DNA of 43,084 nt, from the IMG/VR virus record IMGVR_UViG_2778261355_000014, positions 1 to 43,084 of that record; one strand, given 5' to 3'. This document shows positions 10,328 through 14,791 of this stretch, in pieces. Origin of the DNA: a virus. Taxonomy: Duplodnaviria; Heunggongvirae; Uroviricota; Caudoviricetes. The notes under the pieces are model-generated. The model was given only the letters and a program-made list of their open reading frames with translations, had not been told where the DNA came from and did no database searches. The position numbers were made by a program, and so were the translations under genes. The stretch's first letter is position 1. Each line of letters starts with the position of its first letter.

Positions 10328-10561
10328 ATGGAGCAACAACAAGGGTCGCCATTATCATTGATTATTATGGTGATTTTTTTCGTTTTTATCTTTTTTATAC
10401 CTGCGTTAAAAATATCCAAAAAGGCCGGTTTTGACTGGAAGATGGCTGTATGTTTAACAATCCCTGGCTTTAACGTGGTGGCGTGGCTCGCGCTTGCGTT
10501 CATGGATTGGCCAATTCACAAGTATCTACCAAAAGATGTGAATCGTAAGGATGCAAAATGA
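10328..10561 (+). CDS. Small membrane protein (two predicted TM helices), apparently co-transcribed with mnt
   Basis: GGAGGA RBS inside mnt 3' end; hydrophobic stretches LSLIIMVIFFVFIFFIPAL and AVCLTIPGFNVVAWLALAF. Confidence 0.5.
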   Translation: MEQQQGSPLSLIIMVIFFVFIFFIPALKISKKAGFDWKMAVCLTIPGFNVVAWLALAFMDWPIHKYLPKDVNRKDAK

Positions 10562-10767
10562 ATAAAAAACAGCTTATTAAGTCAAAAACGTCAAGCAAGG
10601 AAGAATTAGAGAAGGAGCTAAACTCCCTGAAATATGCTCTGTGTCTGGTTTACTCAAGACTGCCAATGGAAGATAAAAACGCCATTTACAATGAAATGAT
10701 TAGCAGCCTTGATTTTAACGATAGAGACCTAGCATCCCACCTCAACAGCTTCCGCGTCCCTGAGTAA
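10558..10767 (+). CDS. Hypothetical 69-aa protein
   Basis: ATGA start/stop overlap with the upstream ORF; hydrophilic. Confidence 0.4.
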   Translation: MNKKQLIKSKTSSKEELEKELNSLKYALCLVYSRLPMEDKNAIYNEMISSLDFNDRDLASHLNSFRVPE

Positions 10768-10927
10768 TTCTGTTGCGGATTTGCTTCTTGCGGTGGTTTA
10801 AGCTGGAGAGCTTGGCTTCTGCTTCTGATATTTGCGCATCTAGATCTTTAAGCTCAAGATCTGAAAGTCGCTGGTCAAGCAAGGTTTGGTTCAACTCAAT
10901 GTTGTTCAGGCGTTCTTCTATGGTCAT
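10742..10927 (-). CDS. Hypothetical small coiled-coil protein (start taken at MTIEERL)
   Basis: Heptad-like LNNIELNQTLLDQRLSDLELKDLDAQISEAEAKLSSL; convergent with and overlapping the 10558-10767 ORF 3' end. Confidence 0.35.
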   Translation of the reverse strand: MTIEERLNNIELNQTLLDQRLSDLELKDLDAQISEAEAKLSSLNHRKKQIRNRITQGRGSC

Positions 10928-11068
10928 GATTTCTCCTTGTTGAGGTTGATGTGAAACGATTGATTGTATACGCACTCTTTTGTTAGCTAGTAGCTTTGCT
11001 TAATCGCAAGATAAAGTTTCTGATTAATCCCTAAAAATCAAAAAATAAAGTTAAAACAGGTACATGAT

Positions 11069-11272
11069 ATGGAATGGATCATAGGATTTGTTGTTCTTAT
11101 CTTCATAGCCAGTATGTTTAAACCAAGAAGTTGCGATATCTGTGGTGCTGGATTTAAGAAAAAGTACTTCACATGGACTATCGATGGAAAGAAACAGCAT
11201 CTTTGTCCGTACTGCAACAGTAAAATGGAGAGACGCAACAGCGATAGGCGCTTTAAGGATCGATTTGGTTAA
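11069..11272 (+). CDS. Small membrane-anchored zinc-ribbon protein
   Basis: N-terminal TM helix WIIGFVVLIFIASMF then CDICG...CPYC motif. Confidence 0.45.
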   Translation: MEWIIGFVVLIFIASMFKPRSCDICGAGFKKKYFTWTIDGKKQHLCPYCNSKMERRNSDRRFKDRFG

Positions 11273-11288
11273 CCATTTTATCTCCAAC

Positions 11289-11314
11289 AAAAAACCCACC
11301 TGACGGTGGGTTTC
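11289..11314. terminator. Bidirectional rho-independent terminator
   Basis: aaaaaaccc-acctgacggt-gggtttc hairpin flanked by A-run and T-rich tract between convergent ORFs. Confidence 0.7.
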
Positions 11315-11318
11315 ATAA

Positions 11319-12287
11319 TTAGATTTCTGGTTTCATTCTTCCGAAAACCTTTTCTATTCCTTTTTCGTATTCTTCTCTTGTCTCACTCATCGCTGCGACA
11401 CCAAGAAGCTTACCGATATGCTGACGCAAAGCCTTGACACCAATTTCAGAAAGGAACAGATGCAACTTATCAGATTGTTTTCCGTTCTCGTCTCGGCTGG
11501 CTCGAATCTGTTCAAGGATTTTACCTTTACTCTTTGCTAGCGGGGTGTATATCTGCATGTTGGTTAGCTGCCCAAAACGAATAGGCCGTCCTTTCTCTGG
11601 CCTATTCAGGCCGTACAGTCGATACCACTCCTCGTATAGCTCATCTGGAAATTCCTTTTCATATTGACGAGCCTCTTCACGAACAAACGCTTTGAACTCG
11701 TCAATGACAGCCTGAACTTCTGGACGATAACCAGCAAGCGCATACGCAACCCCCTTAATTCCCGCCTTAGCGGAGGCATTAATAAGTCTCTGTGCTGCGG
11801 CGGCTGCCTTTAACCGTGATTGTGGTAGATCGTCATTATCTTTGGCTTCTATTAGTGCCCTACCAATATCAACAATTGCTGTAATGTCATAACCTAACGC
11901 TTGATGAACGGTTTTAGACTTCGAAGTAAGTTGAAATTTATAGGGATTTTCCATTTTTCGCTGCAATTCTAGATCTCGGTATTTGCTCATATACTGAGCG
12001 CCAAGCAGTTGATCTAAATCCCTGGCATGTTCACCAATCCCTAGCAACTGAGATAATCCAGTTTTCGTAACAACGACAGTTTTCGACTCGTCATCCAGTA
12101 CATAACATTCAGCATCAATGCCAAAATCATCTAAAAAGTTACCACGATGAGTTGCCCTGAGAATCTTACTTTTCCATCTTGCAGCAGCTGCTTTCTTTGC
12201 TATTTCAGAACGCTGCTCTTTAGTCAGCGACTTTGCGCGAGCGATCCCGCCCTTAGCTTTCCCTTCGCCACTTTTCTTTTCAGTCAT
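11319..12287 (-). CDS. Hypothetical 322-aa phage protein with basic N-terminus, at the sieA-equivalent position
   Basis: Start taken at MTEKKSGEGKAKGGIARAKSLTKEQRSEIAKKAAAARW; no catalytic motif recognised; family (possibly P63C-like) not verifiable here. Confidence 0.5.
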   Translation of the reverse strand: MTEKKSGEGKAKGGIARAKSLTKEQRSEIAKKAAAARWKSKILRATHRGNFLDDFGIDAECYVLDDESKTVVVTKTGLSQLLGIGEHARDLDQLLGAQYMSKYRDLELQRKMENPYKFQLTSKSKTVHQALGYDITAIVDIGRALIEAKDNDDLPQSRLKAAAAAQRLINASAKAGIKGVAYALAGYRPEVQAVIDEFKAFVREEARQYEKEFPDELYEEWYRLYGLNRPEKGRPIRFGQLTNMQIYTPLAKSKGKILEQIRASRDENGKQSDKLHLFLSEIGVKALRQHIGKLLGVAAMSETREEYEKGIEKVFGRMKPEI

Positions 12288-12443
12288 AATGCAAGCACCT
12301 TTGTTGTGATGTATGCTTGCATTATATGCACTGTACACACATACAAGCAAGCATAAAACTAAAACAAAATGCTTGCATTACAACCGCGCTACTCCAACTA
12401 CACATTATCATCTGGTATCCTGCTCAAAACTAAGGAGGTTGGT

Positions 12444-12671
12444 GTGAAGCGATGGTTCCTCATAATTACTGTTTTCGCGATCATTTATACTATTTTCCCT
12501 GCATTAAAAGCACCAATGCAAATAATTTCGCTAGCAATAATTGCGATTGGTGCTTTCATTGCAGTAGCCGTACTTGTGTTTAAGGTTTTAAAGTTTTTAG
12601 TTTGGCTATCAAAAGATGATGGATGCAAAGTTCATCAAGAAAAAGAAGGCAAAATAACCAAAGTTGACTAA
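12444..12671 (+). CDS. Small membrane protein (two TM helices), divergent from the 322-aa gene
   Basis: GTG start 7 nt after AAGGAGG RBS; WFLIITVFAIIYTIF and IISLAIIAIGAFIAVAVLVF hydrophobic segments. Confidence 0.5.
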   Translation: MKRWFLIITVFAIIYTIFPALKAPMQIISLAIIAIGAFIAVAVLVFKVLKFLVWLSKDDGCKVHQEKEGKITKVD

Positions 12672-14791
12672 CTGTCACTAGCGAGCCATGTAATAATCCC
12701 CGTGCGGGCAATGGTTTTTGCTTCATCTGTTGATAAGGTTTTCTCCCATCTCTTAAATGCCCCAGATTGCATCAGTTTCCTTTCTATTACGCGTCTCACT
12801 TCTGCTCTGTCTACTGGTGCGTTTTGCAGGCGAAATAGCATTGATTTAAACTCAGGAGAAGACAGTAGAGCATCAGCAGCCTTTATCCTGCTTGTTTTCC
12901 CTGACATCAATGCTGACGTTATCACCCCTGTTGCACCTACACCAGGAAGACCAGATAAGCTTGTAATACCTTCCGCCGCAGCAGCTTTTGAGGCTATTCC
13001 ATAAATTTTTGCGAGACTACCCTTTTCTTTCAGAAAGTTATTAACTTGCTGATCCACAAGACTACTAGCATACTGCTTACCAGTATTGAGTCTATTCATA
13101 GCCTTAGCTGCTTGATAAATCGTATCAAGGCGCTTTGATGCATCTGTGCCAATAGCATCACGGAGAGCCTTCATATTGGCCCCATTGCGTGACATTCCGT
13201 TATACCATTTTACAAATCCATCAACTCCTAATTGCTGACCAGGTGATTTGGCATAGCTGGTAAATGCTTTATTCATTGAGGTGAGAGCAACTTCCTGCCG
13301 CATATCCTTTGGAATCGACTTCATTAATTGCCTAAAGTCGCCACCGTTTCCTTTTGCCATATTAACAACAGCACTTTCAACTTTTGGAATTGCTGATTGC
13401 TGAAGTTTTCTACCCAAGACGGTTACAGCATCATCTTCAATGGATTTTCGTTTTTTTACCAACTCCTTACCAAGCGTCCATAATTCACCTGCGCCATATT
13501 TTTCTGCGACAGCCTGTTGGTCATCTGTTATGGCTGCATATAACTTTTTAAGAACACCTGTTTCTTCATCCTTGAATGGACCAGAGCCTTTGCCAATAGC
13601 TTGTCCAACCTGCTTTCTAGCGAGATCTAAACGCCCATACGTTGGCAAGGTGTTTGGATCAAGTCGGTTCAATGTCCGCTTCATTATTGGAGATAATTCA
13701 TCAATTCCACCTATGTCATCAGCAAAATCCTCTAAAAAATTCAATGTATTAGTTGCCTCAATCCGGTCTCTTACAGGAACCTTTTCGGCAATTTTGTTGT
13801 AGATGTTATCTGACTGATTTTGTAATGATGAAATGGTTTTATCAAAATTATCTGCAAGCCTGTCAGAAACCAGTTGCTTATCAAGGCTTCCCCCAAATGA
13901 AGTTATCATTTCATCAGCTTTTCTTCCTAATTCAGTAATAAAACGCTTATGCGCCTCACTAATCTCCGTTCCAGGAAGACTTGCCACTGCATTATCAAGA
14001 GCCCTGACAGCAGGATTATTAGAGATCATGCCTGGAGTGGCATAATTTTCCAGTTCTAGCTCACGAATAGCATTTATCGCGTTAAAATCAGGATTAACTT
14101 CATCGGCGAAATCTTGAATAGCACGTTGCCCACCAATAAATTTATTATCCATTGCGCCAGCAGCTTTCTTTAACGTTGCTTTAGATGATTTACTACCCAT
14201 CCCTACGGATGAACGATAAATATCCCCGGCACTATTTTTAATTTTTCCTGCAATCTTCCCAAGCGCTGGACCAACAATCTCGGCTACAGGGCCAGCCACA
14301 GCACCAATAGCAGCTCCGGAAGCAACATCGCTATTTGTTCCATTGGCTACAATAGCCCCTTCTCCAGCACCAAGCCCTGCGGCGGCAGCCAGCCTTGCCG
14401 CCCCTTTCGGAACCTGAGAAATAATCCCACCACCACTAACAAATGGCGCTGCTTGTCCAACAAACTCACCAACATCTTGTGCGGTTGATGGTTTTGCCGC
14501 TAACTTCTGCTGTAGAGACTGAATTGCGGCTTGCTCTTCTGGTGTCATATCCTGAAACAGGCCAACACCTTTACCAACATCCATCAATCCACTGAGAACG
14601 CCATACATAAAACGGTCGAAACCGTTAGCATTATTAACAACATTTTCCTGTCTGGAATTTTCCTCTGGTGAAACCAAAGGAGATTGCTGCTGTTCTGGTT
14701 GGGAATCAAGCACAAAGCCATCAGGAAGTTGTGAGTTATCAGGCTGTTCATCCAGAACAAAACCCTCTGGTAAACCTACATTGGTTGCCAT
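12668..14791 (-). CDS. Ejection (internal virion) protein, P22 gp16-like
   Basis: 707-aa Gly/Ala-rich protein at the gp16 position of the conserved P22 order. Confidence 0.75.

Follow-up and report, generated by a model that had tools for sequence, protein, structure and literature searches.

The window analysed here (43,084 nucleotides, positions 1 to 43,084 of IMG/VR record IMGVR_UViG_2778261355_000014) is a P22-like (Lederbergvirus-type) prophage of E. coli ATCC 43886, with its integration site beside tRNA-Arg and intS. At the locus considered, flanked by genes for gp16/gp20-type DNA-transfer proteins on one side and by Mnt/Arc/Ant on the other, an open reading frame (ORF) for a 322-aa protein of the P63C family and a divergent 75-aa ORF are separated by a 156-bp spacer that carries four copies of a short box (Table 1). 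A sequence-only reading of the window had described the minus-strand gene with its basic N-terminus, the plus-strand gene with its two membrane helices and a shared control region of ~155 bp, and in all of this it was correct. It had also placed both genes at the position equivalent to that of P22 sieA, which is right as far as the flanking genes go, but the slot itself is filled by the 75-aa gene only and the 322-aa gene is an extra cassette alongside. Similarly, insertion against the structural operon applies to the 75-aa gene; the late operon of the prophage and the 322-aa gene share the minus strand and are read in the same direction.

Table 1. Features of the P63C and sieA-slot cassettes, in window coordinates.
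Feature	Position	Strand	Basis or remark
P63C cassette, mosaic unit of terminator, ORF and four-box promoter/operator	~11287..12390	-	edges of homology
Rho-independent terminator after the P63C ORF, AAACCCACC-GUCA-GGUGGGUUU then UUUUUUG	11285..11313	-	predicted fold -20.9 kcal/mol, z = -5.7
322-aa ORF (P63C family)	11319..12287	-	Lys/Arg-rich N-terminus, read from sequence
Box 4, TGCTTGCA on the gene strand, after the Shine-Dalgarno and abutting the ATG	12290..12297	.	motif search and comparative
Box 3, TGCAAGCA on the gene strand, over the predicted transcription start	12314..12321	.	motif search and comparative
Predicted -10 TATAAT of the P63C promoter (its final T doubles as base 1 of box 3)	12321..12326	-	fixed-register consensus, 92 loci
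Predicted -35 TTGCTT (TTGCAw in most relatives), inside box 2, 18-nt spacer to the -10	12345..12350	-	comparative
Box 2, degenerate in the window, TGCTTGCT on the gene strand (1 mismatch)	12346..12353	.	motif search and comparative
Box 1, TGCAAGCA on the gene strand	12370..12377	.	motif search and comparative
PsieA-type leader, extended -10 TGgTATCCT (12413-12421) and Shine-Dalgarno	12413..12443	+	P22 identity
Strong Shine-Dalgarno AAGGAGG of the 75-aa gene	12432..12438	+	sequence
75-aa ORF, GTG start, two hydrophobic (transmembrane) helices	12444..12671	+	allele of the hypervariable sieA slot

The two genes are independent mosaic cassettes standing back to back and not a dedicated pair. Among 5426 complete E. 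coli genomes, the P63C cassette (11319-12390) is found in 74 and the 75-aa gene with its leader in 34, and they are adjacent in 4; wider matches to the window occur in ~260 genomes, most of which cover the PsieA leader only and not P63C. Phages EC.P3 and E212 have the 75-aa gene but lack P63C, and P63C cassettes are frequently found without any divergent neighbour. The edges of homology fall accordingly: in other E. coli prophages the matches begin at ~11287 and continue through the control region, whereas phages that lack P63C align with the window only from ~12391 rightwards. Where a prophage in IMG/VR encodes a P63C protein 100% identical to that of the window, homology usually stops 151-159 nt upstream of the P63C ATG, which is the GTG of the divergent ORF, and at least nine unrelated ORFs follow AAGGAGGTTGGT-GTG beside identical P63C genes, exchanged exactly at the GTG. 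These cargo ORFs include signal-peptide proteins, transmembrane plus coiled-coil proteins, small proteins with two transmembrane segments and one product without an obvious signal or transmembrane segment. Because adjacency is so rare compared with the occurrence of either gene, the partners are swapped, and the 75-aa gene has its own leader and exists without P63C, the genes are not co-inherited; the conserved co-occurrence that defines a toxin-antitoxin or two-gene defence module is lacking, and the two-component module proposed by the sequence-only reading (toxin-antitoxin, abortive infection or exclusion pair) is not supported.

The leader of the 75-aa gene connects it to P22. The 34 nt at 12413-12446, comprising the extended -10, the Shine-Dalgarno and the GTG, are 97% identical to the stretch directly upstream of P22 sieA, where AF527608.1 annotates a promoter; a 72-nt query containing the leader matched 71 phage records, in which the P22-type rows span the 34-nt stretch. 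PsieA is located at most 85 bp from sieA (PMC10883804). In E. coli elppa4, sieA itself, which counts among the cargos, occupies the divergent slot beside an identical P63C protein and with the same 156-bp spacing. Given the cargo swaps exact to the GTG, the presence of sieA in the same slot and the P22 leader match, we read the 75-aa gene as one allele of a hypervariable sieA slot, with its own PsieA-type promoter. The locus thus resembles that of P22 in its slot, between gene 16 and the immI/tailspike region, and in its leader, but the ORF in the window encodes an unrelated 75-aa protein that is not known to confer exclusion. The 75-aa protein belongs to phrog_7294, a family of unknown function; BLASTP against E. 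coli SieA gave E = 1.8, so the sequence homology that defines SieA proteins (types A-C) is lacking, and PADLOC-DB 2.0 returned only a match to a generic 4TM effector with an E-value of 0.05. Superinfection exclusion is plausible for this protein alone of the two, given its slot and its membrane character. Phage EC.P3 annotates a 75-aa coding sequence, while the RefSeq version is 100 aa long and starts at an ATG inside box 1; this longer version probably begins too far upstream, within the operator. At loci L083-L104 of our collection, the secreted or membrane proteins encoded behind the same leader, small and of at least nine unrelated kinds, make up a list of candidate exclusion or conversion genes.

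Profile searches identify the 322-aa protein as a member of a family without assigned function. It matches Pfam PF10546 (P63C) with 52.7 bits (cut-off 26.1) and is a full-length member of phrog_2384 (E 1.7e-104 over aa 6-321); its RefSeq entry, WP_000136767.1, is named 'P63C domain-containing protein'. The search for homologues found 1682, and all 44 that we aligned match PF10546. The P63C domain is named after phage Mx8 p63 and was reportedly defined by Iyer et al. in 2002. Conservation is high, with 45-50% identity between the E. coli protein and those of Acidobacteriota, Myxococcota or Oscillospiraceae, and 51 invariant columns. A basic N-terminal helical hairpin (aa 11-38) carries the motif GGxARAxxLTxEQRxEIAxKAAxARW, and the AlphaFold2 model (pLDDT 72.9) has a confident alpha/beta domain at ~aa 43-150. 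Structure matches are weak only: Foldseek against the PDB gave nothing below E = 1, and against BFVD it gave weak but recurrent matches to phage proteins with Bro-N, Ant N-terminal or 'repressor domain' annotations (E 0.06-0.3; best probability 0.96, target-normalised TM-score 0.50). A sequence profile search of the PDB with P63C had no matches. When the alpha/beta domain was used by itself in a profile search, most of the matches were fragments of P63C-family proteins, and no other Pfam domain came up. Sequence profiles do not bear out the Bro-N resemblance of the model, which is a lead only. PADLOC-DB 2.0, which covers known anti-phage defence, and the NCBIfam profiles contain no match for the P63C protein. 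The libraries searched record no function, operator or insertion sequence (IS) linkage for PF10546/PHROG 2384, and a literature search returned nothing useful on the P63C domain, Mx8 p63, ISPa14 or ISMhu11; the box array and the IS1 association described below are additions to what is recorded for this family.

The spacer between the two genes contains repeated motifs, three copies of which had been noticed in the sequence-only reading and are there: ATGCTTGCAT is exact at 12313-12322 and 12369-12378, with no other exact match in the window, and an inverted copy with one mismatch is located at 12345-12354. A fourth copy, overlooked in that reading, is found at 12289-12298 (inverted, one mismatch) and abuts the P63C start codon. 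Over the entire 43 kb only five sites lie within one mismatch of ATGCTTGCAT; since four of them fall inside 90 bp at this locus, as do both exact matches, the clustering is not due to chance. The copies form two inverted-repeat pairs (12286-12297 with 12314-12325, and 12347-12354 with 12369-12376), both nested in one larger imperfect dyad.

Across phyla, the boxes travel with P63C. We collected 160 loci of P63C homologues from genomes across phyla and from IMG/VR, and computed box statistics on 123 unique P63C upstream regions against a background of 1.29 Mb of flanking sequence. Upstream of P63C the array reads TGCAAGCA-N14-16-TGCTTGCA-N22-25-TGCAAGCA-N15-16-TGCTTGCA-(0-3)-ATG, the third spacer (N15-16) containing the Shine-Dalgarno. 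We define the four-box cassette as TGCAAGCA/TGCTTGCA in A-T-A-T order, ending at the start codon, with start-to-start spacings of ~23, 31 and 24 nt; the window conforms to it, with boxes that start at 12370, 12346 (1 mismatch), 12314 and 12290. Exact boxes occur at 0.023 per kb in the background, compared with one or more in 102 of the 123 upstream regions and three or more in 71; the full exact A-T-A-T set is present in 25, and the four-box geometry, with up to two mismatches per box, in 92. When the upstream regions of seven loci from five phyla are aligned (the window, elppa4, ST104, Oscillospiraceae, Rhodanobacter, Acidobacteriota and Myxococcota), the invariant columns are almost all in the boxes, the rest being a handful of scattered positions such as the AG of the ribosome-binding site; the spacers vary.

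The array is kept at loci where protein identity is down to 43%, it is found in Proteobacteria, Firmicutes, Acidobacteriota and Myxococcota, and the Salmonella phage ST104 product orf23, at 29% identity to the query, retains four boxes. Some sub-families have the same layout with other sequences: ACGTGCA/TGCACGT in 933W, TACTTGCyCGrG in Acidobacteria and ATGCTTGACA...TGTCAAGCAT in others; this shift of box sequence with P63C sub-family fits a protein that co-evolves with its own site. The boxes are also kept where P63C is the sole constant gene, and upstream terminators insulate several such cassettes. In ST104 (L165 3063-4996), the P63C paralogue follows cI, at the position of lambda rexAB, as a terminator-insulated unit with its own four-box promoter; orf23 is annotated from an ATG inside box 3 (L165 3917-3952), 12 codons ahead of the conserved MSDK start. 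In Stx2 phage 933W, the paralogue adjoins roi in the nin region, and the start-codon boxes upstream of ST933Wp35 (L166 2880-2917) read ACGTGCA-N11-TGCACGT-N4-ACGTGCA.

A sigma-70 promoter is predicted within the box array. The five bases before box 3, together with its first T, give a hexamer with the consensus T82 A83 T58 A52 A82 T90 (n = 92 unique loci), and the gap of 22-25 nt between boxes 2 and 3 at these loci positions TTGCAw of box 2 as a -35 at a distance of 16-19 nt. A simple promoter scan of the intergenic region found nothing, and the promoter assignments therefore rest on comparative conservation. The predicted start is inside box 3, which means that an mRNA made from this promoter would not contain the 5' arm of a hairpin formed by boxes 3 and 4. 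When changed box positions are considered as would-be RNA pairs, 78 break the pair, 9 stay paired by a one-sided change and 6 are compensated. The built-in promoter and the non-compensatory changes point to a DNA operator and not to an RNA hairpin. P63C itself is most likely the protein that binds these boxes, because no other gene is constant across the loci and the boxes are retained even where P63C is by itself downstream of a terminator; its basic helical N-terminus would suit such a role. Autoregulation through the repeated motif, already suggested in the sequence-only reading, is thus the best reading for the 322-aa gene and gains support from comparative evidence, namely four boxes that accompany P63C across phyla and enclose its predicted promoter.

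Relatives of the cassette provide a second context. An IS1-family transposase gene adjoins P63C at 36 of 150 loci and is divergent across the box array in 35 of the 36, some copies being truncated; all 36 are among the ~66 loci whose P63C is <60% identical to that of the window. In a Kaistiaceae genome, four copies of a 2.5-kb element, 99.9-100% identical, consist of the transposase gene, the boxes, P63C and small ORFs; the element ends in IS1-like terminal repeats (GGTGGTGCATCAGTTTGAA / GGTAGTGCGTCAGTTTGAA) and is flanked by 8-bp target duplications. In this metagenome-assembled genome (CAXXUZ010000003.1), two copies (L056 and L074), ~360 kb apart in assembled-contig coordinates, have exchanged their 8-bp duplications GCAATTTC and GATGGTTC, and the swapped flanks and duplications imply an inversion by recombination between them. 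Terminal repeats, mostly of the same kind, surround both genes (2.3-3.4 kb) at at least eight further loci in Acidobacteriota, Abditibacteriota, Verrucomicrobiota, and Alpha-, Beta- and Gammaproteobacteria; the ends of the Verrucomicrobiota element are related but different. On the transposase strand, a promoter abuts box 1, with a -35 that is either TTGCAw in the box or TTGACn ~12 nt further, and a -10 only 6-8 nt ahead of the ATG. Divergent promoters, one for the transposase and one for P63C, thus flank the array, and a -10 so close to the ATG implies a leaderless or near-leaderless transposase mRNA.

These P63C-bearing relatives share with IS1-family elements their IS1-like ends (GGTrGTG...), the duplication of 8 bp of target and a DDE transposase that is encoded by a single ORF and carries a helix-turn-helix or zinc finger at its N-terminus. 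In this they recall the ISMhu11-type single-ORF group of ISfinder, IS1-family elements with passenger genes. The window copy differs: there is no transposase gene next to P63C and no IS-end motif or remnant within 11000-12700, hence it is not an IS, and only its relatives have the features of the IS1 family. Two further observations concern the IS copies and their neighbours. A small ORF that faces P63C convergently in IS copies of Alphaproteobacteria (L056 5974-6285, minus strand; homologues in L025, L028, L037 and L038) ends in the N-terminal motif of P63C, GGKARAKKLTPERRSEIARKAAAKRW, and its product could be a second box binder or a competitor. In Myxococcota locus L008 (1980-3200), a perfect four-box array separates P63C from a divergent gene for a different type of transposase, DDE_Tnp_1 with a SWIM zinc finger, which is not IS1-like.

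In the model that we consider probable, two cassettes lie back to back, P63C represses itself through the four boxes and the phage copy is a transposase-less relative of an IS accessory gene. The P63C cassette (~11287-12390) is self-contained, with a predicted -35 in box 2, a predicted -10 abutting box 3, box 4 at the start codon, box 1 upstream, and a terminator. The P63C protein would most likely bind the boxes, which form two inverted-repeat pairs, and repress its own promoter; a protein bound there would lie over the -35, the transcription start and the initiation codon. The anatomy of the locus, the independence of its two genes, the conservation of the boxes and the IS linkage are shown by the analysis; the DNA binding, the repression and the transcription starts are what we infer here. 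In the IS copies, where the same array lies between divergent promoters, P63C would control the transposase as well. In the sieA-slot cassette (~12391-12671), a P22-type sieA promoter and ribosome-binding site is joined at the GTG to an interchangeable ORF for a small envelope protein; the 75-aa product is probably expressed from the prophage, and its position suggests exclusion or envelope modification.

Several observations weigh against this model. None of the 44 P63C members scanned contains a recognised DNA-binding Pfam domain, P63C being the only match; the helical C-terminal half of the AlphaFold2 model, including the P63C domain (aa 199-286), is of lower confidence; and hhalign of P63C against the Ant Bro-N domain of the window was negative (probability 0.7%). 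The very high conservation of P63C suggests that the protein is more than a simple repressor. In the window, box 2 only partly fits the consensus, and 21 of 62 distant loci have no exact boxes, most of them having related inverted repeats instead. Finally, pairwise divergence of transposase and P63C is uncorrelated (Spearman 0.12, p = 0.11), which implies that the IS partnership is not strictly co-evolving.

Other mechanisms could be envisaged for the array. The inverted pairs might be 5' hairpins, one of them with the start codon in its stem, through which the P63C mRNA is controlled in its translation or stability: boxes 3 and 4 have a predicted fold of -15.8 kcal/mol (z = -6.1) whose stem includes the AUG and whose loop includes the Shine-Dalgarno, and since the late operon is co-directional, transcripts reading through from it, if they exist, would hold the whole hairpin. 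The arms are however conserved and not co-varying (78 breaking against 6 compensated changes), the conserved -10 predicts an mRNA without the 5' arm, and boxes 1 and 2 are upstream of the promoter, all of which makes a hairpin unlikely. Alternatively, the boxes might be bound not by P63C but by a host regulator or by the N-terminal helix-turn-helix of the IS1-type transposase. The lack of a recognised DNA-binding domain in P63C and the presence of such a helix-turn-helix in IS1-like transposases would agree with this, but the boxes are kept in enteric prophages without a transposase, their occurrence in Proteobacteria, Firmicutes, Acidobacteriota and Myxococcota makes a common host factor unlikely and their sequence varies with the P63C sub-family; we regard binding by another factor as very improbable.

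The position of the array inside the IS raises another possibility, that it is a recombination or transposition site and that P63C is a DNA-processing accessory of the IS, which might for instance resolve cointegrates or control transposition; repression would then be a side effect, as it is for TnpR of Tn3. In Tn3, the res site is located between divergent transposase and regulator genes, and an element-encoded protein acts on inverted-repeat subsites that overlap promoters; IS1 InsA is likewise an element-encoded DNA-binding protein acting on inverted-repeat subsites that overlap promoters. The P63C array is reminiscent of res/TnpR in its arrangement and of InsA in its function. In line with a res-like site, it contains multiple inverted-repeat subsites between divergent transposase and P63C genes, and the highly conserved P63C has many invariant aromatic and charged residues. 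Yet P63C is similar neither to serine recombinases nor to InsA, nor to any other recombinase or nuclease family; the cassette is intact in prophages that have no transposase or IS ends, the boxes are in a fixed register with the promoter elements, and we find a res-like site rather unlikely. As for a dedicated two-component system of the 322-aa and 75-aa proteins with shared operators (toxin-antitoxin, abortive infection or exclusion), the divergent layout around a common repeat-bearing region and the location in a prophage accessory hot spot are what would be expected; we nevertheless give it hardly any credence in view of the adjacency in only 4 genomes against 74 and 34, the at least nine unrelated cargos opposite the same P63C gene, the P22 PsieA leader on a 75-aa gene that also exists without P63C, the P63C cassettes that stand alone or next to a transposase, and the absence of a PADLOC match.

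The immI-proximal region is crowded with morons. A 67-aa ORF at 11069-11272 (plus strand), unannotated in RefSeq, encodes a hydrophobic helix at its N-terminus and a zinc ribbon of the form CxxC...CxxC, for which the Zn-ribbon matches in Pfam are weak; it is convergent with P63C, and the hairpin at 11285-11313, common to both genes, may terminate transcription bidirectionally. Three more small ORFs are found at 10328-10975, between mnt and the P63C cassette, each in a PHROG of unknown function: one of 77 aa with membrane character, one of 69 aa and a coiled-coil protein of ~61-77 aa on the minus strand.

In P22-like phages, one conserved PsieA leader appears to drive a hypervariable set of small envelope proteins, the swap being precise to the start codon, and among these cargo proteins new superinfection-exclusion functions may be sought. 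The family PF10546, widespread and of unknown function, has 1682 or more members, found in prophages, insertion sequences and phages, the Stx2 phage 933W among them; it gains here a precise candidate binding site, a promoter architecture and an ancestral setting in which it accompanies an IS1-type transposase gene. More tentatively, and in a proposal that may well prove wrong, P63C proteins could be sequence-specific regulators of an unrecognised, multi-phylum clade of two-gene IS1-family elements, binding the four boxes between the two divergent promoters in the manner of TnpR at res or of InsA on IS1, from which temperate phages would have repeatedly captured the autoregulated cassette alone: in P22-like phages, in ST104 at the rex position and in 933W in the nin region. 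These sites (sieA/immI, the rex position of ST104 and the nin region of 933W) are recurrent accessory hot spots, compatible with an accessory or defence role expressed in the lysogen, and if capture did occur, the role in the prophage might be immunity against such IS elements or phages. A near-invariant 8-bp box at 29% protein identity would then be among the most conserved cis-regulatory sites in mobile elements. Should the model hold, P63C would represent a new kind of IS-encoded regulator, and a gene that recurs in temperate phages would be explained.

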